Source of the DNA: Ostrea edulis
Taxonomy: Eukaryota
NCBI RefSeq assembly: GCF_947568905.1
Contig: NC_079171.1
Span: forward strand, 25,172,001-25,236,000
Reading direction: 5' to 3'
Length of the DNA stretch: 64,000 nt
The notes under the pieces are model-generated. The model was given only the letters and a program-made list of their open reading frames with translations. It did no database searches and was not told the DNA's origin. Positions 1 through 64,000 of this stretch are shown piece after piece. Both the position numbers and the translations under genes were made by a program. Positions within the stretch are counted from its first letter, which is position 1; each line of letters opens with the position of its first letter.

Positions 1-905
1 TCATTCATAGGTGTGGAACATAAATTTGCCAATGTCGATAAAGGAACAAATGTTTCACTAGACTGCATAGATGTTTGCACAGTTGACGTGAATGCACTAT
101 CAGTGAATTGCACACGAGGTCGCACAGCTGATGTGAACGTGCTATCAGTGGACTGTACAGGCGGTTGCACAGCGGATGTCAAAGTACTTGTAATTGCTTG
201 CACAGGTGGCTGAACAGAAGTGTTAGTGGAATTCACAAAATGTTGTTGAATAAATTCACTTGTCCTTGCTTGTCGAGCTTCAGTAATAGATTCTGTTTCT
301 ATATCATCTAACTGTTCTGCATTTTCCATCACATTCAGTGCTGATTGTAAGGCTTCGGTTTCTTGTTGGATTTCAAGTAGACTGATTTCCGCTTCCAATG
401 CTGCCTTTTGGGTCATAATGGCAGCTTGTTTCTCGACGTATTTCATTTTCACTTTCGCAGCCTCAAGTGCAGCTCTTTTCTGAATAATCGCAGACTGAGT
501 AGATGAAAGGATTGATCGGCCTGATCCAGATTTAACGCTTTGTCTGTCACAGCTAGGATCTTTTGTTGCAACTTGTGTGCGTTGAGTGAGAACCTCGGTA
601 ACAGCCCTCGTTACATTATCTCTTAATTTCAAATGTGAAATCCTTTCTGTTTCGCTTTCAACTGATCTGTGTTTTACAAGAAAGTCAACATAATGATCTG
701 AAAGTCTTTTAAAATCACCACTAGCTTGTTTTATCTGCTTATGTACCATCTCTGCATCCGATATTTCTGGATATTCCTGAAGAGTGGATATTAGGACATC
801 AATTTCCTTTTGAATATGTTTTATTTCCCGATCATATTTCCTGCATCTGTCCATGAACAACTCGGCTCCAGCCTCTGTGAGTTTCCTTTCCCGTTCCATA
901 GCCAT
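1..905 (-). mobile_element. BEL/Pao LTR-retrotransposon gag N-terminus (partial, runs off window)
   Basis: Hand translation from ATG at 905 (MAMERERKLTEAGAELF...) stays open to the window edge. It contains a Ser-rich tract followed by SAIIQKRAALEAAKVKMKYVEKQAAIMTQKAALEAEISLL, the coiled-coil pattern typical of BEL/Pao Gag. Confidence 0.6.
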
Positions 906-926
906 GTCGAAGTTATTTTACTATTC

Positions 927-1817
927 TGTCACAAGAAAGACGATGTATGTTTCTTTACTTTTAATGGCAGAGAGACAACCTCCAGGGAGGGTAAAATACT
1001 GTAAACAAAAATAAGATCCTATTACAACAGGTTCTGCACAAAAGATAAGTGGCATGGTTTATAATAAACATGTAATATGTTATTCAGAACATATCTACAC
1101 ATTTCATGCTAAAGATATCAAATTTCAGTAAATCAAGAATAACATGCACCAAAAGCTTTACAAAGTTATCAAAAATCTTGAATTCTAAATACACACACTA
1201 GAAGACTTATAAAATATTGATACTGATATGTGAAAACTTAAATGTAATCATCACAACCTTTGAGAAAAAATTTAAACTGTGAGCAATTTACACAGAGCGA
1301 TTTACATATCGAACACGTGAAAGGTCAATATATAGTACGTTCAGAAAATAAGCGAGCGTGCCCCATTTACACAGAAAGAAATAATAACAGCAATGAATAA
1401 CATCATTAAAGATCTATCAGAGATAAGATAACCATGAAATATCAATTAATCAAATTTAGACAATATAAACTACCTGCATGTCACGATATACTGGCTGCTT
1501 ATCACATCGGGGTCAACAAGTGTACAATAACAAATATGCGTATGCATTCTTAATATGACTTGCATTTAACATAAAAGTTAATAAAGAGATTAAAAACTTA
1601 CACTTTGGTGCCATGAAGTTGTGGAAAGTTGGAAGTCAAAATGCATGAGTACGGGTACCATGCCGTGAACGTGCTGGGAGCTTTTTGTAACATACAAAAC
1701 AAAACCAATCCCGGACAAATATAAAAAAAAAAATCCGGAATCCAGCACAGATCTCCTTAAACTCTTGATTTGTTGAATATCTCCATGGAATATGTAAGAA
1801 AAAATCCTTCTATGACA
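927..1817 (-). repeat. Putative 5' LTR of the BEL/Pao element
   Basis: Non-coding stretch just upstream of gag with inverted termini TGTCA(927)...TGACA(1817). The partner LTR is outside the window. Confidence 0.4.
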
Positions 1818-1829
1818 GCATTGTAATTG

Positions 1830-2036
1830 TGGTGATCCGGGTTAGAATAGGTCCTCAGTACCCCCTTGCTTATCGTAGGAGGCGACTAAATGGGGCGGTC
1901 CTTCGGATGAGACCGCAAAAAACCGAGATCCCGTGTCAGAATGTGTGGCACGATAAAGATCCCTTCCTGCTCAATGGCCAGAAACGCCAAGCATAGGCCT
2001 AAAAATTTTGAAGCCCTTCACCGGCAGTGGTGACGA
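1830..2036 (+). mobile_element. SINE fragment resembling an abundant oyster/bivalve (MetaSINE-like) repeat
   Basis: Sequence AATAGGTCCTCAGTACCCCCTTGCTTATCGTAGGAGGCGACTAAATGGGGCGGTCCTTCGGATGAGACCGC... recognised from recall only, not from a search. Confidence 0.55.
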
Positions 2037-2860
2037 TATTCAATCCAACACATCCTTTTGCAGGGTCAGTCACACAACAACAATACTTGTTTAACTTCAA
2101 TGTTAAACTTTCCACGAGGAGAAACCTGCTTCATTATGCAAATTTTAATGGTTATAAGGGAGAGGGCATGTCCTCTATGTTAACTGCATCATGCTGTGTA
2201 CAATATTGCTTTATATATTACATGTGAAGTTGCTGCCCTCCATTTAACCCTTCGTAGTTGCTAATTGTTTGGATTATTGTGTATTTTGCGCAGTTTTTGT
2301 GTAAAGCTCGTGTTATTGAGGCGCTTGTGTGTGTTAGTTGTGTTGGTTGTGTTACTTTGTGTCAGTTTTGTGTTACTCTGTGTCAGTTTTGTGTTAGCTG
2401 TTGCTCGAACCATTCGCATGTCCTATGTCGAGTGTTTGTTTTTTACCCAAATTATTCGGCTGCATCAGACATTTGTTTAAAAACAGTCTGAGTTTTTTTT
2501 AAGGCGGTTATTCGATCGCAAGATAGTTTTGCGTTGGTGATAAAAATTTCCCAAGTTTTAAATCCAAGTTTGCTGCGTAATCCATTTGTGTTGTTATATA
2601 TTGTTTCCGACTGCACTCAGTCATGATTGCCAGTTTGATACTCCTTTGGCATGTTTAAATCCTGTTGGTTGTTTTTTTTACCCATTTGATAACTAATGTC
2701 GTGAGTTTAGTTTTCATTTTTTTTATATAATGATAACATGTTTTACATACAAAGTTACATACATATATATACATACAGTGTTATACGATATAAAACGAAT
2801 ACAAAAATGTGAGATGGCACACGTTTGAAAGAAAGTCTTGGCTTCATTTGGCAAAGTATA

Positions 2861-3889
2861 TTATGATGGGTTAAATCCCCTCATTCTAAGACACAAATTC
2901 AGTGTCTGCATGTCCAGTTTGAACTGTTCGATTTCGCGATCCACCTCCGCTCCCCAGTCTTCACTCATGCTACAGCGGCGAATGGTGACTCCCGCGTCCC
3001 AGTCGATAACTTCTGGTTGTTGTTGCGATTGGGGTTCTACATCCCAGTCTTCGATTGGGGTATCGAGATCATTGGAATCTTCGGCGGATTCGTCGCACAT
3101 GGCAACCTGTTTGTACGCGTTCGCCAGTTCGGCAACTTGTTCACATAAAATTTCCTCGTCCCAATCTTCCCCGGCTGCGTTGTATGGGTCCTCGTAATAC
3201 ATTTCCTTGGGTTCTTCCATGTTGGGCCCCAGTGGGTAACTGTCCGTAAATCCGTTACGGATCTCTTTCCGTTCAAACTCTTCACATGCGAGTTCCTCGT
3301 CCCAGTCTTCTCCGGATGACTGGTATGGGTCCTCGTAATACATTTCCTTGGGTTCTTCCACGTTGGGTCCCAGTGGGTAGACGTCCGTAAATCCGTTACG
3401 ATGTTTAGCATTTTCGGATTCAATGTTCATTTTACGGATTTCTTCCAGTTCAAACTCTTCACATGCGATCTGATCGTCCCAGTCTTCTCCGGACGACAGG
3501 TATGGGTTCTCGTAATAAACTTCTTCTGGCGCTTCCACCCTGTGTCCCAATGGGTATCTATCGGTGAATCCCGTAGGCGTCCTAGTGCTAGTTGTAACAC
3601 TGCTAGCTCCCGTAAAGTTCTTAGTAACGGTGGTAGTACCACGAGATACCGTAGACTTCTTAGCCTTCTTAGACTTCTTAGAAGACTTACTGTTGGCGCT
3701 TGGCAATGTCGGCCAATCGTGCTCATTGGAATCAAACTGTTGCACATCCTCCGTATACCAATCATCCACGGTGGCGTTGTAATACATTTTGTGGTCTCGC
3801 TCCCACTCGGTGCTACTATCGTTTTCGAATGTTGCGTACATTCCATTAAACTCGTGACACTCCTTCTTAAGCAACATATTCATATCCAT
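2861..3889 (-). CDS. 342-aa acidic protein with 3 internal repeats (GFTDxYPLG...EDWD) and an LxCxE motif
   Basis: Long ORF with promoter palindrome about 130 bp upstream. N-terminus paralogous to 32679-33312. Confidence 0.8.
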   Translation of the reverse strand: MDMNMLLKKECHEFNGMYATFENDSSTEWERDHKMYYNATVDDWYTEDVQQFDSNEHDWPTLPSANSKSSKKSKKAKKSTVSRGTTTVTKNFTGASSVTTSTRTPTGFTDRYPLGHRVEAPEEVYYENPYLSSGEDWDDQIACEEFELEEIRKMNIESENAKHRNGFTDVYPLGPNVEEPKEMYYEDPYQSSGEDWDEELACEEFERKEIRNGFTDSYPLGPNMEEPKEMYYEDPYNAAGEDWDEEILCEQVAELANAYKQVAMCDESAEDSNDLDTPIEDWDVEPQSQQQPEVIDWDAGVTIRRCSMSEDWGAEVDREIEQFKLDMQTLNLCLRMRGFNPS

Positions 3890-4408
3890 GATTGTAGTAA
3901 TAAAAGATCCTGAAGCAATACTCTGTAGGTAAATGGTACTATTATGCTGGAAGGCAGAAGTTATGATTTTCTAATTAGACGAATGAAAGTATATATAGGT
4001 TTGCGGTCGGTGTTATGTCGAACGCGTTCAATTTTTTGGACCGGTGTTGGCGCGTCGTTGTTTGTTTGGCGATTGGAATCGTGACCAAATCGAGTTTTTT
4101 TAAGGTGCGATATCCCGCGTGGGTGTTTGATAAAAAAAATCTCCAAGTATAGAAGGCAAGTGTTGGTTTGTTATTTTCTGTGCCTGTAACAGAGCACGTT
4201 TTTTTTGGCGAATATCAATCCATTGTTTTGTGTGACAAGAATAAATCATTTGTTTTGGTTTGTAACAAGTTTTATTAAAGGATATTATGTTGCGTATGTA
4301 CGTACATTGTAAATACAACAGTTTTTATATAGCAAGTGGTATATAACAAAGATACATATATAAAATAGACATGTGTACACAGAATTTGAGTGTTTTTTTT
4401 GAAGTCGA

Positions 4409-4846
4409 TCATGCGTCCGCCACAGCCTCGCTTAACGATTGTTCTGCATCTGCGACCGTGTCCACTCTCACAGGTGGTTGTATGTCTGGCATCTCGATTA
4501 TTTCGAAGTGTTCTTGGTCTAGCCATTCTGAGTCTTGGTATCTGTCTTTATGTTCTGTGCATGCAGACTCGGGATTGGCGTTGTTCACGTATACGACTTC
4601 GAAGTCGGGCGAGAACGACAGTTCAGCACACTCATTCGGCGCGTAATTAGGTTTATCGAAGCCTTGCGCCAGTGGTCTCCATGTCGGTTGATACACGTCT
4701 GGAGAGTCGTTGTCATCATTACTATCGGATTCCTCCGCGTGCGGGTTGTATCTGACACTATGTCGGTCGTCTATGACCACCGGTTGTGCATTTTGTTTGG
4801 CGTATTCATGATCTATGTCAGTTTCTCCGATATTGTATGAATTCAT
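4409..4846 (-). CDS. 145-aa acidic hypothetical protein
   Basis: ORF with a truncated paralogue at 33830-33961. Confidence 0.7.
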   Translation of the reverse strand: MNSYNIGETDIDHEYAKQNAQPVVIDDRHSVRYNPHAEESDSNDDNDSPDVYQPTWRPLAQGFDKPNYAPNECAELSFSPDFEVVYVNNANPESACTEHKDRYQDSEWLDQEHFEIIEMPDIQPPVRVDTVADAEQSLSEAVADA

Positions 4847-5043
4847 CTTGGTTTGTGCTTTTTGTTGTTGTGATATAGATATATATATTGATCGATTGGT
4901 GTGGTCTGATAATAATAATATAAAGTACTTTCAGAGGTATATATATACAGTTTAATGCGAGAACTTGTTCGTTATTTCTATCTGGGGAGAAGTTTTGGCG
5001 TATATTGTGCCGTACTGGATAACCTCCGGAGGACAGTAAGTTG

Positions 5044-5231
5044 CGGTATATAATATATATATATTATTGGAGAGGCACGGAGGGCAACTCCGCAGTTAAA
5101 TAATCGAACGTGTTCTAGGCTGGGGGAAAACCCACTTTTGAAGAATCGAACGAGTTCGAGCTTTAGTAACAGCAGCTGTGGAGGGCCGCCCTCCGTGCCT
5201 CTCCAATAATATATATATATATATTACACCG
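5044..5231. repeat. Palindromic pair of origin-like repeat units (P1)
   Basis: About 40-bp inverted arms CGGT(AT)nTATTGGAGAGGCACGGAGGGC enclosing two TCGAAC palindromes and a GGGG-AAAA-CCC hairpin. Confidence 0.85.
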
Positions 5232-5904
5232 TTAGTTTATGGCCTCCACAGTAAATCGACCGGTTGTAGTTTTGGGGACGATTTTGATGTTAAACCTCAT
5301 GTTATTGAGGACCTGTGCATGGTTTTGTGCGTGTTGTGTGTAGTTGTCTAATACAATTTACAAGTATAGAACACAAGTATATGGTTGGCGTTTGATAAAT
5401 TTACAAGTATAGAACACAAGTATATGGTTGGCGATTGATGAAGTTTTTTTTACAAGTCCACGGTTGATGATATAAAAAAATTGCAAGTGTATAACACAAG
5501 TCCACGGTCAGTGTATGATTTGATGATTTGATGGTTTGATAAAGTTACAAGTATATATATAACACAACTACATGGTTAGCGGTTAGATTGAAGTCGCAAG
5601 AAAAACACCAGTCTAGCGTTCATGTTCTAAGTGCGTGTTTTAAATGGGTCAGGTATAACCCGACTAGATGGGTGGTTCAACTGAGTGCACTTTTGAGGTC
5701 AAAGGTCAAATTTTAGATAGCTCGTACTAGGACTGTGTCTGTCGTGCTATTTCGTAAACAAAATGGTAACAACCACAAAGTCGTGCACAAAAGAGATAGG
5801 GGATATTCTCTCCCGGATTTTTCTAAGTATGTGTTGGTGTTTTTGAAATAATATCGCAAGAAAACGTAAGTCCAGAGTTGGTAAGTAAAGTTTCGATAAA
5901 TAAC

Positions 5905-6585
5905 CAAGTTTAACCACCAAAAACTACACACAAAAACAGACAACTAGTGCCTTTCTAATGGATTTTTTCTAAGTATACGATGTACTGTGGAGGGCACATA
6001 GTGACGGTATATAATATATATATATTATTGGAGAGGCACGGAGGGCGGACCTCCACAGCTAAAAGATTGAACACGTTCGAGGCTGGGGATTCCCCGTTTC
6101 TTCGTTTGATAATGCTAAAGATATAGAACACAAGTCCAGGGTTGGTGTTTGATAAAGTTAAAAATATAGAACGCAAGTCCAGGGTTGGCGTTTGATAACG
6201 TTACAAGTTCGTGCTTGACGTTTGATAAAGTTTTAAAAATATAGAACACAAGTCCAAGGTTGGTGTTTTAAATTGAGACCACAGGAAACACAAGTTCGGG
6301 GTTGGGGTTCTAAGTGATATTATAAACAAACACGAGTTCACTTTTATATATGCTAAGTGCGTGCTTTAACGTTTACAACTATATATCCCAGTAAATTTTA
6401 AATAAAGACGAGTTTAACCACTAAAACTACACACAAAAACAGACAACTAGTGCCTTTCTAATGGATTTTTTCTAAGTATACGATGTACTGTGGAGGGCAC
6501 ATAGTGACGGTATATAATATATATATATTATTGGAGAGGCACGGAGGGTAACTCCGCAGTTAAAAAATCGAACGAGTCCGAGCTC
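5905..6585 (+). repeat. About 150-bp direct repeat carrying single origin-like units (6005-6080, 6508-6585) plus about 40-bp tandem repeats
   Basis: AACCACYAAAACTACACACAAAAACAGACAACTAGTGCC...GGCACGGAGGG occurs at about 5905 and about 6410. ATATAGAACRCAAGTCC units at 6120-6260. Confidence 0.8.
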
Positions 6586-6830
6586 GGGATGATCTTCGTA
6601 GCTCTATGTTTCCTTTTTATACAAACACTCGCTTACTGGAGTGAAACTTAGACCTTTTCTCAAAACCCAGTGTGTAATCCTATACACACACACCTCAACA
6701 ATAAGGAGTCATGTTTTTTTTAAGTTTCAAACATTTTATATAAAGCAATATCAAACAACATGAAATAAAATTTACAAGAACATATATACACACATCATAT
6801 AGCATTACAGAAATCAAATGTGACAAAAGT

Positions 6831-7270
6831 TTATCGTCGGGGTCCCAATACACGCCTCAATCTTAACCGCCGTACGGGGATTTCTGGTAAATTGTCATTA
6901 GCATTATCGGCTTCGGTATTTTCGACAACAGCAGGCACATTATCATTGTCAGTTTTGCTAACAGCATCATTGTCAGTTTTGCTAACCACATCAGTATCAG
7001 TTACAGTTTCGCTAACGACATCAGTTTCGGTTACAGTCTCGGCTGTCTCCTCGACATCCGGATTCATCGTCTCGGCCGTCCTAGTATATCGTATCGGACG
7101 ACCACGCCGACGACCGCCTGCTCCAACACGTCTCTTTCTGCGGGCAGGCGGGTTTGATTCTCCACCGATATACGTGAATGTACCATCGGGTTCCTCCCTC
7201 ACGATCACATTGTCTGAGTCGTTATCACTGCTGAGATCTCTGTAGGCGTTGGGGTCGCGCAGCTCGGCGT
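6831..7270 (-). pseudogene. 3' remnant of a paralogue of the 873-aa gene, cut at the inverted-repeat boundary
   Basis: LRDPNAYRDLSSD.DSDNV...RRGRPIRYTR...RRVLGPR matches the C-terminus of 35393-38014. Upstream sequence is the IR. Confidence 0.75.
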
Positions 7271-7293
7271 ACACATGAACATTGCACACACAA

Positions 7294-8286
7294 TTAAAAT
7301 AGTTCCTTGAAGGTTAGCGCCAACCGTCTGGCCTTCATTGATTTGGTAGCACTAACCTTCGATTTCGAAATGTTAGAGTGTGTGTACTTCGTCAGGGCTG
7401 AGTTTTGATGCTGTGGCGAGAACATCTCCGGCGAGCCACACACTCTCGTTGCCTGAATCACACGTTTAAGTTTATTGTCGTTGACCACGACTTTGGGTCC
7501 CGGTGTTCTTGCAGACTTCTTACCGCCCGTCGATTTCTCCGCCGTCGTCTTTAGTATCGCGTTATCCCTGCTGAGATTGTGTTTATTAATAAATTTCCCC
7601 AAGGTGTTGATGGCGGCGGATACCTCCGACAAATCCTTAAATTGCGCCCTGGACGCATCTATACAATTATCCAAGTCGGCCAGAATGGCCTTGATGCTAC
7701 CCAATCTACTGGATAGATCGTTTTCGATCTGTGTTGTACGGTCGTTCACTAACTCTTGCAGATGATTGACTTTAGTGTAATATACACTCTTGACGAAAAT
7801 GCTGCATTTGTCACCATATAAAAAATTGTTAAAAATGCACCACCTATTTCTAATGTGGTGATCAATGATGGGCAATGTCTCGTCCAGATATTTATCTTTG
7901 GGATTCGGTGTATCGATCGATATCCCACAGAAGAAGCACGTGGATTTGGAACAGCTGTTATCGTGGAATAATCCGGATGTTACAAGTTCGTCTATCACAT
8001 TAGCCTTCAATCCGCATCCAACATATGTCTCGCGCCTACGATCTTCGTGGGCGAAGAATTTGTGGGCCGAAGGATGAATGTATTCATGTTTCACACTATC
8101 TTCTGTCGTAATAACTTGGCGTACATTCCCATCAAACGTTAAGCTATAATCGTTTGCACTCTTCACAGTCTTACGGTCGTGCTGTCCCAATTTCACGGCA
8201 TCTGTCGATTTACCCCAAGGGTTCACACACTTAGAGTACGGCTTGGTCCGATTGTTGCCCAAAACTTTAGATTTCATCGCTGACAT
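7294..8286 (-). CDS. 330-aa protein with a divergent BIR-like zinc domain
   Basis: RRETY...LVTSGLF...CFFC-X22-H-X6-C (canonical BIR is CX2CX16HX6C). No RING. Confidence 0.75.
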   Translation of the reverse strand: MSAMKSKVLGNNRTKPYSKCVNPWGKSTDAVKLGQHDRKTVKSANDYSLTFDGNVRQVITTEDSVKHEYIHPSAHKFFAHEDRRRETYVGCGLKANVIDELVTSGLFHDNSCSKSTCFFCGISIDTPNPKDKYLDETLPIIDHHIRNRWCIFNNFLYGDKCSIFVKSVYYTKVNHLQELVNDRTTQIENDLSSRLGSIKAILADLDNCIDASRAQFKDLSEVSAAINTLGKFINKHNLSRDNAILKTTAEKSTGGKKSARTPGPKVVVNDNKLKRVIQATRVCGSPEMFSPQHQNSALTKYTHSNISKSKVSATKSMKARRLALTFKELF

Positions 8287-8435
8287 CGTGGTAAATGATT
8301 AAAAATGATACGATAATAATCTGTCTATAGTTATATTACATAAATCGCACAATACGTTGTGATAATATTATGCGCTACGGAGGATATATATAATCATTAT
8401 AAATCGAACACGTTCATTTTCTTTTACTTTCACTT

Positions 8436-10793: not shown

Positions 10794-10914
10794 ATATTGA
10801 AAGTGATACTGTATTAATAATATAAAATCGGTTTATTACAAATAACATGTGTGCGGTATATAGTACAATTGACTACATAATACATTTTTGTTACAATTTG
10901 CATCAATGGTGATA

Positions 10915-50109: not shown

Positions 50110-50230
50110 TATCACCATTGATGCAAATTGTAACAAAAATGTATTATGTAGTCAATTGTACTATATACCGCACACATGTTATTTGTAATAAACCGATTTT
50201 ATATTATTAATACAGTATCACTTTCAATAT

Positions 50231-52588: not shown

Positions 52589-52731
52589 AAGTAAAAGAAA
52601 ATGAACGTGTTCGATTTATAATGATTATATATATCCTCCGTAGCGCATAATATTATCACAACGTATTGTGCGATTTATGTAATATAACTATAGACAGATT
52701 ATTATCGTATCATTTTTAATCATTTACCACG

Positions 52732-53724: not shown

Positions 53725-53855
53725 TTGTGTGTGCAATGTTCATGTGTGTAAAATGGAACACAAGACTAGAAATGATGTAAATATGTTTGATTGTATATAT
53801 CGTTGTATTATTTTTAAATCTTGTTTTTGAAAAATGTAGCTTGTGATTTTATGAT

Positions 53856-54746: not shown

Positions 54747-54759
54747 CTCTCGGCGAGAG

Positions 54760-54769
54760 AAAAAAAAAA
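54760..54769 (-). terminator. Pol III oligo-T terminator of tRNA-Ile
   Basis: T10 on the minus strand, 1 nt after the discriminator base. Confidence 0.8.
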
Positions 54770-54770
54770 G

Positions 54771-54844
54771 TGATCAGTGTGGGACTTGAACCCACGACTT
54801 TCGTGTTATTAGCACGACGCTCTAACCAACTGAGCCAACCGATC
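54771..54844 (-). tRNA. trnI-AAT: tRNA-Ile (anticodon AAT)
   Basis: GATCGGT TG GCTC AGTTGGTTA GAGC G TCGTG CTAATAA CACGA AAGTC GTGGG TTCAAGT CCCAC ACTGATC A. Full cloverleaf followed by a T10 Pol III terminator. Confidence 0.95.
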
Positions 54845-55018
54845 ATTGAGAAAATTACTACTAACAAATGTATATATCAGGTCATGTGTTTTTATTCGAT
54901 TGATTATATAACATATGCAAATTAAATACTATACAAATACACACACGGGTTTTCTTTATACTACAAAATATAAGACGACGATTCGGTTTTGTAAAATAAT
55001 ACTAGCAAGTTTTTTACA

Positions 55019-56857
55019 TCAAGCGTAACATCCTGACGTCTGAGTCTCACAGAGACGAATTGGCACTTGCGATTCGATCTTGGCTCTACACAGTGGACAC
55101 GTAGCGTATGGATTACCCATGTTACAATTGGTACAAGTAACCATGTGTCCACACGGTATAAATGCTATACAGCTGGGTGCAGACATACACACCGCACAAG
55201 TATACGATTGTAGCAAATTCTCGAGCTTGTCAATAGCTTGCTCTCTCGTATATTTCTTGTACTCCTCGTTTGCGAACATATTTGCTCGATTGGTGGATGG
55301 TAACTGTGCATATGGTAAAGTCTTGGGCGGCTCGGGTTTTGGCATTGGTAAACTTAACAATTCTTCGATGCTAGGAGGTTCGACCTCGTCTATTTCGAAA
55401 TCTTTGACTTCGGTACCAGATATTCCCGGTTTATCATCGATTCCTATCGATTCTTGACATTCGCACAATGTAGGCTTCCTAACGCACCTCGCTGTTAAAC
55501 GTGCCTCGAGATCTTCTCGTGTGATATTGAGCACCATCGATAACATCCCATCCCGGTTTAAACCATCGGCTGATATCTTATAAAATAACTCATTCACGAT
55601 TTCGGTAATGGTGAACTTTCCTATCAGTGCTAATAATTCCGGCCTACGTTCCAAGCTGCGAAATATGAGCGATTTAACTGCCATATCGTCTTGAGAACAG
55701 GATTTCAGATCTAAAATGTTCTCAAGAACAGACCGTTTGAAATTTAGATCGAAAGTCTTCGCTAATGCATCCTTGTAGAAGTGGTACAGGATGGACTTCA
55801 TTTGTGGTTTATTCAACTTCGTTCTAATGTATCCACAGCCATTAGACCATTTTACATGTTCGTGATACGGATCATCGTCTTCTGTCCAGTTTTCCCCACA
55901 TAATCCGCAAAAGAAACAATAACAGCTATCAATGGCATCACCATCTTCAATATCTTCAGTACCTTTAGGTAATCTATAAAATCCAGCCATGGCAAAAGCT
56001 TCGGCATTTTTCGTCAGAAATGGGGTTGCATTATCATTAAACGTCGCCAATCTGTTAGTGACTATACACAAATCCTTTCTGCCAGTCTTTACACACATCG
56101 CCTTATCTGCAGCTGCGATATATCCATTAGCTTCGACATAAGTCTTGTTCACATACCACCAAATTTTTCGACGAATCATCGTCTCTAACTCGCCAGCAAC
56201 AATTTTGCTATTAAACAATATCCAATCTAACAGTCGCGTCGTATCATCGCAATAGATGGGTCGTTCGCTCAAGATTAACGGTGGGAACTGAGCCCTGTGG
56301 TCTACGTTAAGATTCACCGAATCATACAACCACGCTACAGAATTGCGGATGTGCTTAATAAAATTGCGTGGATATGGAAACTCGCGGTCCCAACTTCCGT
56401 CATCTACTAATCTATTGTACAGCATTGACTGTTTCTCCCTAATCAACACACATTCGGCTATGGTAGCCTCGCATCCACTATCTGATCTTATGTCGTACTT
56501 CATCCACTTACAATCTGGACTCAATCGATTATGAATTTCTACTGGATCGTCTCTCTTGCACCAATATCCCTTCTCCAGCATGCAGTAAAAACATTTTACC
56601 AAATCCCTCGGTTGGTCTCTAGCGAAATTTTCAGTGCTGCGATAAAATCCAGCCATCGCAAGTCGTGCCCATCCGGGCGTATTACATTCAATAAATTTAT
56701 CTCCATTAAGTGACAGCATTCTATCATAACACTTCTGCATGTGAATTCCTCCGTGAATGTTTTTCATATTGTTTTCCATTATCGGTATATATATATATAT
56801 TAACAGCCGAATTTGACGATGTATAAAAACGTTCGATATTTTAAAAGAACCAATCAA
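55019..56857 (-). CDS. iap: IAP array gene 1: 2 BIR + RING (likely start 56779)
   Basis: Two CX2CX16HX6C BIRs; RING CAVC..PCGH..C..C..CPLC. Confidence 0.92.
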   Translation of the reverse strand: MIGSFKISNVFIHRQIRLLIYIYIPIMENNMKNIHGGIHMQKCYDRMLSLNGDKFIECNTPGWARLAMAGFYRSTENFARDQPRDLVKCFYCMLEKGYWCKRDDPVEIHNRLSPDCKWMKYDIRSDSGCEATIAECVLIREKQSMLYNRLVDDGSWDREFPYPRNFIKHIRNSVAWLYDSVNLNVDHRAQFPPLILSERPIYCDDTTRLLDWILFNSKIVAGELETMIRRKIWWYVNKTYVEANGYIAAADKAMCVKTGRKDLCIVTNRLATFNDNATPFLTKNAEAFAMAGFYRLPKGTEDIEDGDAIDSCYCFFCGLCGENWTEDDDPYHEHVKWSNGCGYIRTKLNKPQMKSILYHFYKDALAKTFDLNFKRSVLENILDLKSCSQDDMAVKSLIFRSLERRPELLALIGKFTITEIVNELFYKISADGLNRDGMLSMVLNITREDLEARLTARCVRKPTLCECQESIGIDDKPGISGTEVKDFEIDEVEPPSIEELLSLPMPKPEPPKTLPYAQLPSTNRANMFANEEYKKYTREQAIDKLENLLQSYTCAVCMSAPSCIAFIPCGHMVTCTNCNMGNPYATCPLCRAKIESQVPIRLCETQTSGCYA

Positions 56858-57012
56858 GAATATTTGAGTTCAATGCTAATAATTTATTTTGCACATATGT
56901 CAAGTTAAACAATATACAACATATTAAAAATATACATCAATGATAACTACGTAGTCTGAGTATGAGTAAGAACATTGGGTCATTTTGTAACACGATATCA
57001 GCAAGTTTCACA

Positions 57013-58761
57013 TCAATTGTCCCATCCCAACATCTGAGTATCACAGAGACGAACTGATACTTGTGTGGAAATTTTGGTATTGCACAGTGGGCACACAGCG
57101 TATGGATCGTCCATGTTACAACTGTCACAAGTAACCATGTGTCTACACGGTACAAATACCACACAGCTGGGCGCAGACATGCATATCGTACAAGTATACG
57201 ATTTCATCAAATTCTCGAGCATTTCGACAGCTTGCTCTTGTGTATATAGCTTGTATGTATCGTTTGCGAACATATTTGCTCGAGCGGTGCATGGTAATTG
57301 TGCATATGGTAAAATCTTGGGTGGTTCGGGTTCTGGTATTGGTGCACTTAGAAACTCTAGGATGGTAGGAGGACGAGCGTCTGAGTTCACATAAGGAAGT
57401 TTGATTTGAGTACCAGATTCGTTTAGTTCATCGAACTCTATTGTCGGTCTCGATTCTGGACATTCGCACGACATATGAAGACCATCGCGTCTCAGGAGTA
57501 AAAGTGTTATAAGTTCAACTCGTGTCGTGTTGCGCAATTTCGCACTCCGGTATATATCAGCATCATCATCGGTTGGGTGCATATGAAAAATCTCATTCAC
57601 AATTTCGGTAACTGTGAAAAACTGCAGCATTTTTACTAAATCCGGTCTTTTATCAAGATTGTCCAATATGCACAATTTAACTACAGTTTCGTTTTGAGAA
57701 CTAGATTGGTTATCTAGAATGGTCTCAAGAACATGCCGTCTGAAAGATTGATCGACGGTCCCCATAATCCCGGTCTTGTAGTAGTGGTACAAGATAGATC
57801 TGATTTGGTTCCTATTCATCTTCGCTCTAATGTGTCCACAATTGTTAGACCTTATCGCATGTACGTGATACGGATCATCGTCTTCTTTCCAGCTCTCCAC
57901 ATTAACTCCGCAAAAAAAACATCTGCAGTATTCAGTATCGGGATACAGTTTATCTCGGTAAAATCCGGCCCTAGCTACAGCTTCGGCATTTCTCTTCAGG
58001 TATGGGCTTGAACCATCATTAAATGACATGATTCTGTTAGCAAGTACACACATTTCTTCGTCTCCATTCTTTCTACACACAGCCTTATCTGAAGCTGCGA
58101 CGAAACCATTATCTTCAACATAAGTCTCGTTGACATGCCACCAAACCCGTCGGTGCGTAAGCATATCGAACACTTCAGTAAAGATGTCGCTATGGTCTAA
58201 TGTCCAATCTAACAGTCGTATTAGATCGTCACGATCGATGGGTTGTTCACTCAATATTAACGGTACAAGCTGAGGCCGATCATTTTGATCAAAATCTGGA
58301 CCGTACGACCACGCTACAGAATTGCGGATGTATGTCATAAAATATTGTGGATATGGATAGACGCAACGCCGCATTCCCTCATGTATACATCTATCGTATA
58401 TCAGCGATTGTTTCTCCCTAATCAACTCGCATTCGGCTATGGTCGCTACGCATCCATCATCGTCTGAAGTTATGTTGTACTTCCTCCACTGACAATTTGG
58501 GCTCAATCGCAAATAGACCTCTACTGGATCATCTGTCTTGCGCCAATGCCCCTTCTCCATCATGCAGTAAAAACACTTTAGCAAATCGTCCGGTTGATCC
58601 TTAGCGAAATTTTTAGTGCTGCGATAAAATCCAGCGCCCGCAAGTCGTACCCATCCGGATTCATCGGGACCAACGATTCTAGCGTTAAGAAGCGACTTCA
58701 TTCTATCCACTCCTCTCTGCATATGGATTCCTCCGCGAACATTTTGCATATTGTTATACAT
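57013..58761 (-). CDS. iap: IAP array gene 2: BIR1 (His to Tyr), BIR2, RING
   Basis: DPVEVYLRLSPNC at the zinc-ligand His position. Confidence 0.92.
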   Translation of the reverse strand: MYNNMQNVRGGIHMQRGVDRMKSLLNARIVGPDESGWVRLAGAGFYRSTKNFAKDQPDDLLKCFYCMMEKGHWRKTDDPVEVYLRLSPNCQWRKYNITSDDDGCVATIAECELIREKQSLIYDRCIHEGMRRCVYPYPQYFMTYIRNSVAWSYGPDFDQNDRPQLVPLILSEQPIDRDDLIRLLDWTLDHSDIFTEVFDMLTHRRVWWHVNETYVEDNGFVAASDKAVCRKNGDEEMCVLANRIMSFNDGSSPYLKRNAEAVARAGFYRDKLYPDTEYCRCFFCGVNVESWKEDDDPYHVHAIRSNNCGHIRAKMNRNQIRSILYHYYKTGIMGTVDQSFRRHVLETILDNQSSSQNETVVKLCILDNLDKRPDLVKMLQFFTVTEIVNEIFHMHPTDDDADIYRSAKLRNTTRVELITLLLLRRDGLHMSCECPESRPTIEFDELNESGTQIKLPYVNSDARPPTILEFLSAPIPEPEPPKILPYAQLPCTARANMFANDTYKLYTQEQAVEMLENLMKSYTCTICMSAPSCVVFVPCRHMVTCDSCNMDDPYAVCPLCNTKISTQVSVRLCDTQMLGWDN

Positions 58762-59055
58762 TATCGCTTGTATATATTTAACAGCTGACTTGGTGAGGTA
58801 TGATGTCGAAGGTTGATATGACTATATAAGCTATACTGTGAGTTTATATACCAATCGATCCGAATGATATGTCGAACACGTTCGATCTTTGCAAGCACCA
58901 ATCAAAATGTTGAAGTTAATGATAATAATTTATTTTGAACATGTCAAGTTAAACAATATATACAACATATTAAAAAAATATACATCAATGATAACCACGT
59001 AGTATGGTTAAGAACCTTGGGTCATTTTGTAACATAATACTAGCAAGGTTTCACA

Positions 59056-61071
59056 TCAAGCGTCACATCCTAACATCTGAGTCTCACAGAGACGAACTGG
59101 CACTTGGGTGGTGATTTTGGTTCTACACAGTGGACACTTAGCGTATGGATTGCCCATGTTACAATTGTTACAAGTGACCATGTGTCCACACGGCATAAAT
59201 ACTATACAGCTGCAGGGCCGTAACTGCCGATGAGGCAGACGAGGCAACTGCCTCGTCTGATTTTTTGGCAAAAAAGAAAATAAAATTATATAAATGTTAT
59301 ATTATAGGATATATGTTTAAAATGAAGACAAGCACCTTTGTCTTTGACACCATATTACGATTCTTTACATAGTACAAATGAAACACAAACATGATAAATT
59401 GGGATTTAAAAAGTGTCATTTTCAGTCGTAAAGTCAATCGGCGGCCCCCAATCCCCTGCCTCCCCTGATTTAGAACCCTACTTACGGCCCTGAGCTGGGT
59501 GCAGACATACACACCGCACAAGTATAAGATTGTAGCAAATTCTCGAGCTTTTCAATAGCTTGCTCTCTCGTATAGTCCTTGTACTCCTCGTTTGCGAACA
59601 TATTTGCTCGAGCGGTGGATGGTAATTGTGCATACGGTAAAATCTTGGGTGGCTCGGGTTCTGGTATTGGTGCACTTAGAAATTCTAGGATGGTAGGAGC
59701 AACGTGCGTGCCCACATGAGGAAGTTTGACTTGAGTACCAGATTCGTTTGGTCTATTATCGAACCCTATTACCGATCTCGCTTTTTGACATTCGCACAAT
59801 ATATGGAGGCTATTGCGTCTCAAGACTAAACGTGTCTCAAGTTGGTCTCGTGTCGTTTTGCGTATCATCTCATTCCGGCACGCACCATCGGCTGGGTGCA
59901 TATAAAAAATCTCATTCACAATTTCAGTAATGGTGAAATTTTTCATCAGTTCTAACAAGTCCGATCTACCCTCCAAATTGCGCAATATGGTCAATTTAAC
60001 TATCGTGTCGCTTTGAGAACTAGAATTGTGATCTAGAATGGTCTCAAGAACATACCGTCTGTGATTCTGGTCGATGGTTCCCATAATCTCGGTCTTGTAG
60101 TGGTGGTACAAGATGGATCTGATTTGTACTTTGTTCATCTTCGTTCTAATGTATCCACAAGCATTAGACCATTTCACATGTTCGTGATACGGATCATCGT
60201 CTTCTTCCCAGCTCTCCACATTAACTCCGCAAAAAAAACATCTGCAGCGGTCGATATCACCAGGCACTTTATGTCGGTAAAATCCAGCCCTAGCCAAATA
60301 TTCGGCGTTTCTCTTCAGATATGGGGTTGAGTCATCATTAAACGACACCGCTCTGTTATGGACTATACACATTTCGTCTTCACCACTCCGTCTACACACC
60401 GCCTTATCTGAAGGTACGATAAATCCATTAGCTTCGACATAAGTCTTGTCGACATGCCACCAAATTCGTCGGCGCATGAGCATATCGAACTCGTTAGTAA
60501 AGATATCGCTGTGCTCCAATGTCCAATCTAACAGTCGTATTAGATCGTCACGATCGATGGGTTGTTCACTCAATATTAACGGTACAAGCTGAGGCCGAGC
60601 ATTTTGATCAAAATCCGGACCGTACGCCCACGATGCATAAGAATGGATACATTCCATAAAATATTGTGAATTTGGATAACCGAATTCCTGTGTTCCTACA
60701 CATCTAGCATGTATCAGTGATTGTTTCTCCCTAATCAACTCACATTCGGCTAAGGTCGCTATGCATCCATCATCGTCTGAAATTATGTCGTACTTCTTCC
60801 ACTGACAATTTGGGCTCAATCGCATATGAACCTCTACTGGATCGTCTGTCTCGCACCAATACCCCTTCTCCATCATGCAGTAGAAACACTTCACCAGACC
60901 TTTCGGTTGGGACTTAGCGAAATATTTAGTGCTGTGATAAAATCCAGCCCTCGCAAGTCGTGCCCATCCGGGCGTATTGGCAATCGATTTATCTTCAATA
61001 AGTGACAGCAGTCTATCAGAATACCTTTGCATATGAATTCCTCCGCGAACATCTTGCCTATTGTTATACAT
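59056..61071 (-). pseudogene. iap: IAP array gene 3 with RING split by a MITE
   Basis: ...YTCAVCMSAPS|insert|CIVFMPCGHMVTCNNC...CPLC. Confidence 0.9.
59213..59492. mobile_element. 280-bp MITE with 11-bp TIR and 5-bp TSD
   Basis: AGCTG|CAGGGCCGTAA...TTACGGCCCTG|AGCTG. Internal hairpin CAGACGAGGCA-AC-TGCCTCGTCTG. Empty site seen in the paralogue near 55170. Confidence 0.9.
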
Positions 61072-61306
61072 TATCGCTGTATATATTTAACAGCTGACTT
61101 GATGATGTATTATGTTGAAGGTTGATATGACTATGAACTATATTGTGAGTTTACATATCAATCGATTCGAGCGATATGTCGAACACGTTCGATCTTTGTA
61201 AAGTACCAATCAATATGTTTGAAGTTGATTATAACAATTTATTTTGCACATATGTCAAGTTTAAAAAAATACATACAACATACTAAAACATATACATCAA
61301 TGTTAA

Positions 61307-62827
61307 TCACATAGAGTAACTAAGAACCTTGGGTGGTTCCAACTCTGGCACAAGTCCAGTTAAGAATTCGGGACCAGTATATGCCTCTAACTCGGGGTGT
61401 ACAATCCTGTTGCTGAAATGCGGTCTACCGTCTTGCAAGGTTGGCGTTTCGGCATCTTGACATACGCATTTAGAAGAACTGCATCTTTTGCAGACACCAT
61501 CTCGATTCGCCAAACGATTTAATAGAATACAGTGCGAAATATTGTATACTCGTATATCTATATCTACAAGCTTGCGCATCTCGTCCACCACGTCCGATAC
61601 TGAAAACCTCTCTAACAGTGGATGTAAGGACGTCATTCTCAGCAATTCTGCAGTCAATCGTTCTTTAGTTTGCGGCGATCTTGCTGCGGATCCGTATAAC
61701 TCTTCAATGTAATCCTGCACGATCGCATGGTCTCGGAATGTCAATCCTAGAATGCTCTCGATGATCGAGCGTCTTTCGTCTTGTGTGACAGATCCCATAA
61801 CGTTATCCTTGTAGTAGTGATACAAGATAGATTTGATCTGAGGCGTTGTAAGTTTCGATCTGATGTGTCCACAAGCGTTAGAACGTATCGCATGTTCGCG
61901 ATAAGGATCGGATTTTTCGTCCTCCCAATTCAACACATTGACCCCACAAAAAAAGCATTTTATCTCACACTCTTCGATATTACTATGTGGTTGATCACAG
62001 TAAAATCCAGCCTTGGCCCATTTTTCATTGTAACCTAGTTTATTTGCGACACTACTCAAGGGTTTAAACGATCTCGTCCTGGTCGGACACGAGATCATTT
62101 TGAACATGTTGTTTTTTTCGCAATCTGGGTTTGTAGCTGCAACGATCCTATAATTATCAACAAATGTTTTGTTCACCAACCACCAAATTCGTCGACGCAT
62201 AACATCATCGAACTTGCGAGCAACCGGGGCGACATTCGCAAACGCCCAGTCTAACATTCGTATGTGATCTTCGTACGCAACTGTCCGTTCGCTCAAAATC
62301 AATGGCGGAAATTGGGGTAGATCCTTTGGGGCGACTTCTGGGCCGTACATCCACGATATAGAATCTACTATAGACGATATGTACATGCGTAGTCCAAATT
62401 TATTATCTTCGTTCATACACCTGCTGCGCATTAGCGCGATTTTATCCCTAAGCATCAAGCACTCCATTGCGGATGCGGCACATTCTTCAGATTGTGTAGG
62501 TATATTATATTTCTTGAACTGACAATTTGGATTCATGCGCAAGTGAATCTCTCTTGGATCGTCATCCTTTGACCAATTACCCTTCTCTAGCTGGCAGTAG
62601 AAACACTTTAGTAAGTCGTCGGGCTCATTGTAGGTGAGATTTTCAGAGCTACGATAAAATCCAGCATTCGCAAGCTTTACCAGGTCCGGTTTATTCTCGC
62701 CTACAATATTATCGTACATCGTGTGCAAAGCGCCACTGTTCATCATCGATAGCATTCTATCAACCACCCGTTGCATGTGAATTTTTACGGGACACCCTCC
62801 GTTAACATCGCTCATGTTGTTAGCCAT
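61307..62827 (-). CDS. iap: IAP array gene 4: 2 BIR, RING deleted
   Basis: Two BIRs; ends at EPPKVLSYSM*. Confidence 0.85.
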   Translation of the reverse strand: MANNMSDVNGGCPVKIHMQRVVDRMLSMMNSGALHTMYDNIVGENKPDLVKLANAGFYRSSENLTYNEPDDLLKCFYCQLEKGNWSKDDDPREIHLRMNPNCQFKKYNIPTQSEECAASAMECLMLRDKIALMRSRCMNEDNKFGLRMYISSIVDSISWMYGPEVAPKDLPQFPPLILSERTVAYEDHIRMLDWAFANVAPVARKFDDVMRRRIWWLVNKTFVDNYRIVAATNPDCEKNNMFKMISCPTRTRSFKPLSSVANKLGYNEKWAKAGFYCDQPHSNIEECEIKCFFCGVNVLNWEDEKSDPYREHAIRSNACGHIRSKLTTPQIKSILYHYYKDNVMGSVTQDERRSIIESILGLTFRDHAIVQDYIEELYGSAARSPQTKERLTAELLRMTSLHPLLERFSVSDVVDEMRKLVDIDIRVYNISHCILLNRLANRDGVCKRCSSSKCVCQDAETPTLQDGRPHFSNRIVHPELEAYTGPEFLTGLVPELEPPKVLSYSM

Positions 62828-63006
62828 AGTCGAAATACTTTTTATGACTTTGATGGTACACTTATTTCATTATAAATAGCATAAATATCGAACGTGTTCG
62901 ATTACAATAATGACTTTAAGATAGTATTATAATTATATCATCAAATTTATTACAATGAATGTGTTAAATACATATATATACGATAGTACAAATGCCAACA
63001 ACAATT

Positions 63007-63468
63007 TTAGTCTATCATGCGAAGCTTGCCACCGGATATGTGTAATGGTTCATCATCAGTATCGTCATCTTCATCAACTTCTTCCATTAAGCGAATTTTA
63101 CCACCTGATAAATATAACGGTTCGTCATCCGAATCGTCATCTTCGTCAATTTCATCCATTAAGCGAAGCTTACCATCGGATAACTGCGATGTATCACTAT
63201 CTACATCGTCATCCTCGTCAATTTCTTCAAGTCTTAGCGCCATGCGCTGCTCATCATATTTACGCAACTCTTCCTTCAATAGTAGCAGTTCATGATGTGT
63301 GTCCTCAGCGAGATTCGCTTGCTCCGCCATTCTCTCTTTTTTTGTACACCACATTGCAAATGTTACTACACATCGACCAAGTAGTGACGATTCGGCCCAG
63401 CGTATAAGAGCTATCGTTATCGATAGACTCAAATATGTCAGATCTGGTGTTTCTTGGTGAGACTTCAT
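63007..63468 (-). CDS. 153-aa acidic protein with ~24-aa repeats
   Basis: RLM(D/E)E(I/V)DEDDD..DEPL..SGGK repeats; palindrome at about 63580. Confidence 0.7.
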   Translation of the reverse strand: MKSHQETPDLTYLSLSITIALIRWAESSLLGRCVVTFAMWCTKKERMAEQANLAEDTHHELLLLKEELRKYDEQRMALRLEEIDEDDDVDSDTSQLSDGKLRLMDEIDEDDDSDDEPLYLSGGKIRLMEEVDEDDDTDDEPLHISGGKLRMID

Positions 63469-63828
63469 TTTAACAGACGTTTGTAATAATATATTTTATA
63501 TATGTATTACTACCGTATTGGTATATTGGAATTATTCGAAGTTTTTAACCGGTTTATACCAAACACTGTAATATATAAATCCAACGTGTTCGAGGTTACC
63601 CATATTGGGTCAATTGTGATATTATATCCACAATATATACCATAAAGACAGATTTAAATTTGTCGATACTTATATTTGGTTTGATAAATAGACATGAAAA
63701 AAATGCACATGTGAACATACATATATAAAATTACAATTTTGGTTACAATCCATAATGTTTTCATAAATGTTCTTTCACGAAATCCAGAATGCCCCAATGT
63801 TCATCAGCTCGGTATATAATCGATCACT

Positions 63829-64000
63829 CTATCTAAAATGTAGAAATTTGGGCACTTTCTCGTGTCTAACAGTGAAGACTCTCTTCTTGGACTTGACTTT
63901 ATCACCAGCCTTAGCCATCTTCAATGGGGATCGGATATTTTCCTTCCCAGGATGTTCGATGTTGTCAAAATCCAGTCTTCTGCGGGTAGCCCTCCTCCTG
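63829..64000 (-). CDS. 3' end of an ORF entering from the right
   Basis: Hand translation RRRATRRRLDFDNIEHPGKENIRSPLKM...FLHFR*. Confidence 0.55.
   Translation of the reverse strand, partial: RRRATRRRLDFDNIEHPGKENIRSPLKMAKAGDKVKSKKRVFTVRHEKVPKFLHFR

Follow-up and report, generated by a model that had tools for sequence, protein, structure and literature searches.

A probable gB-encoding member of the Herpesvirales, from a lineage next to Orthoherpesviridae, embedded in the chromosomes of Ostrea edulis

INTRODUCTION

Several groups of herpesviruses resemble the element described here. The Malacoherpesviridae (OsHV-1, HaHV-1, and BaHV) have mollusc hosts, genomes of ~200 kb, two pairs of inverted repeats, and IAP/RING genes, so that layout and size are similar to those of the oyster virus (PMC11092209), a likeness that is not diagnostic. 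A viral homologue of CLCC1 is present in four malacoherpesviruses (PMC12639132), and BelcheriHV-1 of the lancelet is integrated in some individuals only (PMC12373286). The Teratorn-like alloherpesviruses of fish are multi-copy endogenous herpesviruses with intact genes and subtypes, and the accessible part of one source sets out a model of piggyBac-assisted integration for them (PMC10175614). According to the accessible part of a preprint, starfish and ribbon worm genomes hold embedded Herpesvirales regions, whose polymerases branch between Ortho- and Malacoherpesviridae (bioRxiv 10.1101/2025.04.19.649669). Soft-shell clam herpesvirus 1 (unclassified Herpesvirales, taxid 1621983) is bivalve-associated and has a terminase (A0A140ZYM8) similar in length to that of the oyster virus.

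Here, we analyzed 64,000 nucleotides of the Ostrea edulis genome (RefSeq GCF_947568905.1, contig NC_079171.1, positions 25,172,001 to 25,236,000; the window), together with the viral DNA found beyond this stretch. Like the Orthoherpesviridae (HSV-1, CMV, and EBV), the oyster virus has gB, UL9-like and UL5-like proteins, and UL/US isomers, and the terminases of the two are sisters. It differs in its invertebrate rather than amniote host, in ~20 dispersed palindromic repeats per viral genome, in that most viral genes are without detectable homologues and gH/gL were not found, and in a terminase gene that is a single 718-codon frame, whereas that of Orthoherpesviridae is spliced. From the malacoherpesviruses, it is set apart by core proteins far from those of OsHV-1, by the presence of gB, and by the lack of a CLCC1 match. 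It shares with BelcheriHV-1 its integration and its presence in some individuals only, but it lies in arrays of several strains, not in the one or two copies of that virus and the malacoherpesviruses. Unlike Teratorn, it has no piggyBac transposase in the ORFs scanned and no TTAA-bounded ends, and its copies are truncated and rearranged. The starfish and ribbon worm regions are likewise chromosome-embedded invertebrate herpesviruses; the accessible part of that study names no oyster case, gB, layout, or multi-strain arrays, and overlap is possible. Our literature search, with subscription journals and bioRxiv supplements outside its scope, turned up neither an account of this element nor one of a family of invertebrate herpesviruses with gB. 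Related viruses may reportedly be covered by Rosani et al. 2023 (Front Mar Sci).

RESULTS

Host flank, junction, and transposons

The viral DNA is chromosomal, because some of its genes are interrupted by host transposons that have target-site duplications. A sequence-only reading had taken the window for a large endogenous DNA virus in an oyster-like genome, with a host retroelement and SINE flank and two host insertions inside viral genes, and each of these points holds. The host features are as follows.

1 to 1749, minus strand: terminal part of a host LTR retrotransposon of the BEL/Pao type, with a gag-like ORF at 3-905 and the LTR at 922-1749
1828 to 2035, plus strand: host SINE-like repeat of very high copy number, by copy number and read depth
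2219 to 2220, no strand: host-virus junction, spanned by a short-read contig (2163-3211); host sequence ends at 2219
27618 to 29176, no strand: host non-autonomous DNA transposon with TTAA duplications, in the 3' part of a viral gene
59213 to 59492, no strand: host MITE, flanked by a 5-bp duplication, that cuts the third IAP short of its RING

Left of the junction, the BEL/Pao element is followed by the SINE-like repeat. The element has Peptidase_A17, RVT_1, and DUF5641 domains in L028, and its LTR in the window is 99.6% identical to its other LTR; the SINE-like repeat reaches a depth of more than 2,000-fold in each of three read sets. The short-read contig over the junction contains no mismatch, and the run that it comes from may be that of the assembled individual. 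A second copy of the flank (L041:2414) has the same host base joined to different viral DNA, and 21 bp of the filler at that junction exactly match host DNA close by. The larger transposon, which we take to be Kolobok-like, has 2,945 candidates genome-wide, including a 100% identical copy on C9. The MITE, which severs the RING end from one IAP gene, has 447 candidates, many of them 100% identical. Telomeric integration of the HHV-6 type was rejected, as no run of three TTAGGG units was present in the window or in 90 scanned stretches.

Extent, copies, and strains

The endogenous element is not limited to 64 kb. The window is only one part of a ~480-kb mosaic, as viral DNA runs ~420 kb further on contig C8, and three other loci carry further copies. 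At least five viral strains are distributed across the four loci in all. Most ORFs had been described as intact, and for 33 of the 34 main ORFs in the window, a homologue is present in another copy. The window ORFs with homologues are collinear with locus B, and ORFs of at least 130 aa cover 69% of positions 2240-64000. The dN/dS between copies is 0.07-0.15 in three conserved UL genes, and the divergence of the strains under purifying selection points to repeated insertion.

A comparison of read depth with the host, proposed with the original reading, gave values near host level rather than those of a high titre: 1.1, 3.9, and 0.2 viral copies per haploid genome in three WGS runs. Viral copy number differs between samples, and three other samples have almost none of the junction-side fragment. 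Part of the locus A mosaic may consist of two haplotypes assembled one after the other, because this locus contains a 200-N gap and near-identical inverted blocks.

Genome layout and inverted repeats

The window likely comprises the US, RS, and RL part of a herpesvirus genome with the layout TRL-UL-IRL-IRS-US-TRS. The viral segment lengths sum to ~205 kb. The viral features of the window are listed below.

2220 to 7270, minus strand: fragment of RS (short inverted repeat) from a second strain, with ORFs at 2861-3889 and 4409-4846 and the 3' remnant of an 873-aa gene
5025 to 46979, no strand: 16 cores of a dispersed repeat, (TA)n with GC flanks, many of them arranged in pairs that form 200-bp palindromes; putatively origin-like
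7271 to 16894, minus strand: arm 1 of a 9.6-kb inverted duplication, with short-unique-region genes; a rearrangement product
16895 to 32686, minus strand: first part of US (short unique region), inverted relative to the remainder of US
21563 to 23350, plus strand: IAP with two BIR domains and a RING (Pfam)
25697 to 26308, plus strand: RING-finger protein (Pfam)
32687 to 38763, minus strand: native short inverted repeat RS, with 257-aa and 873-aa ORFs
38630 to 38653, minus strand: motif containing an A-run, located at the L-S junction; a putative packaging terminus
38764 to 40054, no strand: native RL (repeat of the long segment), which recurs at the opposite end of the long unique region
40165 to 44129, plus strand: end of the long unique region, with genes of 359, 249, and 238 aa and a gene for a membrane protein that is interrupted at 44129
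44130 to 53747, plus strand: second arm of the inverted duplication, beginning inside a 262-aa gene; the context to its right is native
53748 to 64000, no strand: US continued, with a 263-aa gene (N-terminus hydrophobic) and four IAPs in tandem at 55019-62827

Large inverted repeats had been cited as a likeness to OsHV-1. The 9.6-kb repeat is real (9,624 bp, arms 99.93% identical with one mismatch and one 6-bp gap), but it is not a genomic repeat of the OsHV-1 type, because its ends fall inside genes; on the same ground (cuts at 7270/7271 and 44129/44130), we rejected it as a native herpesvirus repeat. A pure assembly artefact is unlikely, as the depth of the arms is ~1.5 times that of the single-copy part in run X1 and a contig breaks at 7271. 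The native inverted repeats are other, shorter blocks and occur in herpes-type isomers: three of the four possible L-S junction types were observed, and the Herpesvirales trait of unique segments flanked by inverted repeats with isomers is thus present. Two other copies end 14 and 19 nt past the motif at 38630-38653. At one of these two ends, the neighbour is a Maverick that lacks a target-site duplication, so this end may be a secondary deletion.

The (TA)n palindromic repeat has 104 exact matches genome-wide, and the 100 matches listed are all at the four viral loci; a reversed-sequence control gave none. The IAP/RING richness described earlier was confirmed by five BIR proteins that pass the Pfam cut-off, beside which the window has one further BIR protein with a weak score and one RING-only protein.

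Hallmark genes

As originally read, the window itself contains no hallmark gene (no core-gene match in 36 ORFs). The adjoining contig was the suggested place to look for DNA polymerase, terminase, MCP, or PIF genes: the first two were found, no MCP gene was confirmed, and no PIF family was present among the scanned ORFs. The hallmarks beyond the window are a terminase, a family B polymerase, a UL9-like origin-binding helicase, a UL5-like helicase, a kinase, and glycoprotein B. The herpes-type terminase ATPase/nuclease subunit (DNA_pack_N E 9e-11, DNA_pack_C E 8e-16) is present in four open copies, and its best PDB match is HSV-1 UL15 (5e-29). The polymerase (PF00136 E 4e-16, exonuclease E 6e-9) had no PDB match at 1e-5, and a search for its relatives returned one. 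The UL9-like protein matches Herpes_ori_bp (E 3e-13), and the UL5-like helicase matches Herpes_Helicase (2e-7, above the curated cut-off), with no herpes match in the PDB. Glycoprotein_B was matched at 2.6e-13, above the curated cut-off, by a single-copy, 1,236-codon open frame among viral genes, and all 14 of its PDB matches are herpes gB. Fusogens like gB also pass between virus groups (chuviruses and some BEL/Pao elements). A 1,186-aa gene lies head-to-head with the polymerase across palindromes, an arrangement reminiscent of UL29-oriL-UL30. Assemblin (PF00716) gave a weak match below the cut-off (E 0.009), followed by a Q-rich tail. The only additions from PHROGs and NCBIfam searches were polB and, for the UL9-like protein, a match to CyRepA1, and scans of IMG/VR, phage, and metagenome data returned 0, 0, and 1 weak locus.

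For the capsid, PDB sequence searches of five candidate genes gave nothing useful. A 986-aa candidate adjoins the terminase; it had no sequence match, its structure model failed (pLDDT 24), and its only ESM Atlas matches, at 0.87 to microvirus capsids, are a lead at best. A 1,283-aa protein had no usable ESM Atlas match. No Pfam matches to gH/gL, tegument, or nuclear egress core genes were found in the scanned ORFs, where divergence may hide them, nor was a CLCC1 homologue matched by Pfam among these ORFs, not all of which were scanned whole. The X region, a malacoherpesvirus feature, was not found either. Transposase and integrase matches among the scanned ORFs belong to host elements (Tc1, Gypsy, and Maverick).

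Phylogenetic placement

The virus probably belongs to the Herpesvirales, outside Malacoherpesviridae, in a gB-encoding invertebrate lineage next to Orthoherpesviridae. The family, unresolved in the sequence-only reading, is now narrowed to this order, while the suggested likeness to malacoherpesviruses was not upheld by a terminase far from that of OsHV-1. An undescribed lineage had also been proposed, and the terminase indeed falls in an unnamed clade sister to Orthoherpesviridae. This placement rests on one gene and on a tree of 22 terminases that includes four long-branched outgroup proteins and no malacoherpesvirus. The invertebrate clade (Mytilus, Elysia, and other contigs; two members carry a host name) is monophyletic at 89/97 and groups with Orthoherpesviridae at 96/97. 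The Orthoherpesviridae clade has support of 100/100, with the oyster virus as sister and not member. The alternatives of ortho+allo (p = 0.028) and invertebrate+allo (p = 0.016) were rejected, the latter placing the oyster terminase outside the Alloherpesviridae clade. A Foldseek search, using a terminase model of mean pLDDT 53, ranked soft-shell clam herpesvirus 1 first (E 5e-30), rhesus CMV second, and OsHV-1 fifth, with structural-alignment identities of 22%, 17%, and 11%. At 22% identity, compared by one protein entry only, the clam virus is a different virus. None of 27 terminase-cluster look-ups gave a malacoherpesvirus name.

Maverick contacts

An unexpected feature of the short repeat is ~62 bp resembling a host Maverick/Polinton terminus, found in 6/6 whole copies and in a seventh, partial one.

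5653 to 5717, plus strand: ~62-bp element like a host Maverick/Polinton terminus (66-column alignment, 97%), without the terminal bases
near 34753-34815: second Maverick-end-like element, in the native RS at 32687-38763

Mavericks also touch viral DNA at five places. Two are internal insertions with 6-bp duplications, one abuts the locus A terminus, one is truncated at the left end of locus C, and one lies within ~0.7-1.4 kb of a viral fragment on C7. Mavericks are abundant, with 246 capsid candidates genome-wide, and the family closest to the RS element is concentrated on C8.

DISCUSSION

We propose that the germ line was invaded several times by an infectious virus that persisted in nuclei, and that linear or concatemeric viral DNA would have been joined into chromosome breaks by host end-joining, without an integrase of its own. 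The inserts would later have been rearranged, by an inversion with a 9.6-kb duplicated breakpoint, deletions, and flank duplications, and host transposons would then have inserted into them. The dispersed palindromes are most likely origins or enhancers bound by the UL9-like protein, and the IAP array may block host apoptosis, judging from the known function of BIR-RING proteins.

The same virus could instead have integrated with help from Mavericks, as in the piggyBac model for Teratorn, with the Maverick integrase acting on inserted Mavericks or on the RS element and so carrying the virus into chromosomes. The five contacts and the terminus copy in RS fit this idea, which we nonetheless consider unlikely: no mapped virus-host junction lies at the RS element, whose viral copies are without terminal bases, no Maverick is present at the 2219 junction, at both ends of locus B, or at the right end of locus C, and none of the viral copies is flanked by a shared target-site duplication. 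Mavericks are in any case common in this genome, including on C8. More doubtful still is a very divergent malacoherpesvirus that gained gB separately. The mollusc host, IAP/RING genes, layout, and size all agree, and malacoherpesviruses are absent from the terminase tree; against this stand the closer terminases of rhesus CMV and the clam virus, the cluster look-ups, and the lack of a CLCC1 match among the scanned ORFs.

That free replicating viral DNA was co-assembled into the chromosome, a chimeric join named at the outset as what would undo the endogenous reading, is very improbable. The complex near-identical duplications and N gap of locus A, and the near absence of the junction-side fragment from three samples, would suit such a join, but it is largely refuted by transposons identical to genome-wide copies inside viral genes, with their duplications, by the junction-spanning contig without mismatch (possibly from the assembled individual), and by depth near host level over four loci and at least five strains. 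A relative of baculo-, nudi-, or nimaviruses (Naldaviricetes), to which the hr-like palindromes and IAP genes had pointed, is the least credible source, given homologues of herpes terminase, gB, UL9, and UL5 within one collinear unit and no PIF family among the scanned ORFs.

Returning to a herpesvirus joined by host end-joining, we lean toward a fourth family of Herpesvirales, composed of gB-bearing viruses of molluscs and other marine invertebrates and sister to the herpesviruses of mammals, birds, and reptiles. A tentative extension, for which we hold out a lesser chance, adds a helper-satellite or decoy relation with host Maverick viruses through a selected copy of the 62-bp terminus. The Maverick-end element in the viral repeats may point to a herpesvirus-Polinton interaction, and a helper-satellite relation, if true, would give an animal herpesvirus a pairing of the virophage kind.

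The accessible part of a structure-based survey of an alloherpesvirus reports that the gB-gH/gL entry system was not found (PMC13030845), and how the three herpesvirus families branched is not settled. With an invertebrate lineage that has gB, UL9, and an ortho-adjacent terminase, the origin of Orthoherpesviridae and of their fusion machinery would become testable on genome-scale data. In this farmed shellfish, polymorphic and mostly intact herpesvirus DNA amounts to hundreds of kilobases, and its type would be missed by searches based on OsHV-1.

Viral loci and gene content

The window, taken in the sequence-only reading for a large endogenous DNA virus in a probable, oyster-like bivalve, is indeed one. 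Past position 2219 it is gene-dense, with 69% of the sequence within ORFs of at least 130 amino acids. The IAP/RING richness noted earlier was borne out, as BIR and RING are the sole firm Pfam matches among 36 window ORFs. A viral palindromic repeat has 104 exact matches, and all 100 listed fall at four loci, around which ~0.93 Mb was read as separate stretches (L numbers).

Places with viral DNA in the Ostrea edulis assembly (contigs C7 and C8)
Locus A: C8, from the window (25,172,001-25,236,000) to ~25,653,900
Locus B: 26,937,163-27,053,899
Locus C: 52,194,021-52,437,684
Small viral fragments: C7

Homologues in another copy were found for 33 of the 34 main window ORFs, and gene order is the same at locus B. 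The C7 fragments (18,029,5xx-18,033,xxx and 18,045,xxx) are small duplicated viral short-repeat pieces with a Maverick, a Polinton-type host element, alongside. A 14-bp palindromic motif, likely a binding site, has 60 occurrences in mostly viral stretches totaling 834 kb and none in 90 kb of host stretches; in the window it lies at 4018, 6067, 14121, 15193, 25598, 27415, 29755, 33469, 39624, 45818, 46890, 58872, 61179, and 62888. Within the long unique region (UL), 11 kb is tandemly duplicated, and putative membrane-protein genes form paralogous arrays (L014/L015, L029/L030, L096, L018). A heliorhodopsin-like membrane protein (L021:8481-9260; PF18761, E 1.5e-4, below cut-off) is kept in four copies and, by eye, is missing the retinal-binding lysine.

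Herpesvirus genes

Searching the adjoining contig for hallmark genes, as had been proposed, yielded a family B polymerase and a terminase downstream of the window, together with an origin-binding helicase and a kinase (all by Pfam). The terminase carries both herpes Pfam domains. At locus C, a herpes helicase and glycoprotein B (gB) both exceed curated Pfam cut-offs. The gB is single-copy and embedded in viral sequence, with a signal-like stretch at its N-terminus and a membrane span at its C-terminus; all 14 of its PDB matches are herpes gB chains (best 2e-4). A protease-scaffold gene is likely present (E 0.009, below the cut-off). Motifs point to candidates for the primase, the single-strand binding protein, the portal, and UL32. 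For these and the capsid candidate, PDB and other sequence searches and a structure model of the capsid candidate gave no confirmation.

Placement of the virus

A terminase profile search returned 112 proteins at E ≤0.001. A quick tree of 41 of these placed the query in a clade of 28 beside the orthoherpesviruses, which holds Mytilus galloprovincialis and Elysia chlorotica proteins and otherwise mostly members without names. In a careful tree of 22 rows (10 from the invertebrate clade, four Orthoherpesviridae, four Alloherpesviridae, four unnamed outgroup proteins, and no malacoherpesvirus), the invertebrate clade was supported at 89/97 and its grouping with the orthoherpesviruses at 96/97. 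Grouping Orthoherpesviridae with Alloherpesviridae was rejected (p 0.028), as was grouping the invertebrate clade with Alloherpesviridae (p 0.016). When a terminase structure model (pLDDT 53) was compared with predicted viral structures, the best match was soft-shell clam herpesvirus 1 (22%), followed by rhesus CMV (17%), with the malacoherpesvirus OsHV-1 ORF109 in fifth place (11%). Soft-shell clam herpesvirus 1 is listed in NCBI as unclassified Herpesvirales. A metagenome contig (L104:4080-4355) gave a single weak match resembling a terminase (26%, E 3e-7).

We regard membership in Herpesvirales as almost certain. The virus very probably lies outside Malacoherpesviridae, and a sister relationship to Orthoherpesviridae is the placement we lean toward. 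The virus is endogenous, and its invertebrate lineage is unnamed. The sequence-only reading had left the family open and suspected an undescribed lineage; the order is now reached and the lineage is still unnamed, and the suggested malacoherpesvirus kinship very probably does not hold. A published screen that looked for OsHV-1 and HaHV-1 genes in 209 mollusc assemblies reports a substantial share of them in one snail only (PMC11092209). Two surveys describe gB, gH, and gL as not found in an alloherpesvirus (PMC13030845) and aquatic herpesviruses as having class I, not class III, fusogens (PMC12583693). In our literature search neither this element, nor a gB in a virus of this kind, nor the Maverick-end element discussed below turned up.

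Genome layout

A ~6-kb block (window 32687-38763) flanks the short unique region and has a second copy on its other side, in the opposite direction after allowing for a local inversion. The long unique region is likewise bounded on either side by a 1.3-1.45 kb block (38764-40054). Segment lengths sum to ~205 kb by arithmetic from coordinates. Three of the four possible types of L-S join were seen, one each in the window, at loci A and C, and at locus B; herpesviruses with two repeat pairs have the same isomer pattern (PMC12096621). Since the short segment at locus A is flanked on both sides by long-segment DNA, the source of that insert was circular or concatemeric viral DNA. At loci A and C the right end lies 14 and 19 nt, respectively, beyond the same A-run motif at the L-S join, as expected for a putative packaging terminus. 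As independent evidence the locus A end counts for less, since it directly adjoins a Maverick and shows no duplication.

The large inverted repeats remarked on earlier include a real 9.6-kb repeat (7271-16894 and 44130-53747), yet it is a rearrangement unlike the native repeat blocks. Its arms differ by one mismatch and one gap, it starts within a 262-aa gene, and it borders cut genes at 7270 and 44129. It stems from a recent inversion in which a breakpoint was duplicated. Arm depth in run X1 is ~1.5 times that of the unduplicated part, so the repeat is probably more than an assembly artifact.

A Maverick-end element in the short repeat

Approximately 62 bp matching the end of a widespread Maverick family is whole in six short-repeat copies, three of which are recent duplicates, and partial at locus B.

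Maverick-end-like elements
Window 5653-5717
Window ~34753-34815
L011:6026
L033:4950
L035:4538
L078:4398
L066:2803-2850 (part)

The viral versions are without the terminal bases and show four differences in ~61 bases between strains, with a dS of ~1.2 in the neighboring gene. The matching Maverick terminal repeat has 365 candidates genome-wide, often in pairs ~20.8 kb apart around capsid genes. The element contains a direct repeat resembling a nuclear-receptor DR1 site. Mavericks touch viral DNA at five places, and because no junction lies at the element, we do not take it as an integration signal. It may serve as a decoy or as an enhancer or origin that is shared, or it may reflect a satellite relation. 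For one Maverick capsid, all but four rows at ≥85% identity are on C8 (~4-5, 25, 33, 44.9, 51.6-52.1, and 70 Mb); this virus-rich chromosome also bears three of the four herpes loci.

Host flank, insertion, and copy number

The retroelement and SINE flank was confirmed; the last host base is window 2219, with viral sequence onward.

Host flank of locus A
Window 922-1749: LTR, end of a BEL/Pao retrotransposon at the window start
Window 1828-2035: SINE-like repeat

Both host transposon insertions reported inside viral genes of the window have target-site duplications and copies at 100% identity elsewhere in the genome. Further host elements within viral DNA (L010:6239-L011:5465; L023:5195-6701; L025:2902-L027:4016; L042:3983-L046:1820) are one Gypsy with identical LTRs within a viral palindromic repeat, one Tc1 interrupting a UL9-like gene in one copy, and two Mavericks, each with 6-bp duplications. 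The locus A flank is present three times (window 922-1749; L033/L034; L040/L041): the Pao element is complete in one, reduced to a solo LTR in another, and missing from the third. Either one or more segmental duplications are real, or haplotypes have been mixed.

Most other viral ends are mid-gene. Within the duplicated flanks, one host base meets two different viral sequences, and the filler of one of these junctions includes 21 bp copied from host DNA close by, which suggests end-joining repair. No viral integrase was detected among the ORFs scanned, and no telomeric repeats in the window or the 90 stretches scanned.

Four copies of the terminase share 97-100% identity; locus B represents another strain. 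In comparisons between copies, three conserved UL genes have dN/dS of 0.07-0.15 and eight window genes 0.06-0.9, so divergence of the strains took place in functioning viruses, prior to insertion.

The stretch was partly present in the 20 sequencing runs listed, from seven studies, with at least half of its words in ten. Read depth, a comparison also proposed from the sequence alone, is near the level of the 895-Mb host genome: three WGS runs gave 1.07, 3.89, and 0.22 viral copies per haploid genome (reads mapped at 90% identity, 18 repeat-free bins; a run may come from a pool, and counts for divergent strains are too low). All three runs nearly lack the junction-side fragment. Near-host depth fits inherited, polymorphic inserts, as likewise reported for a lancelet virus (PMC12373286).
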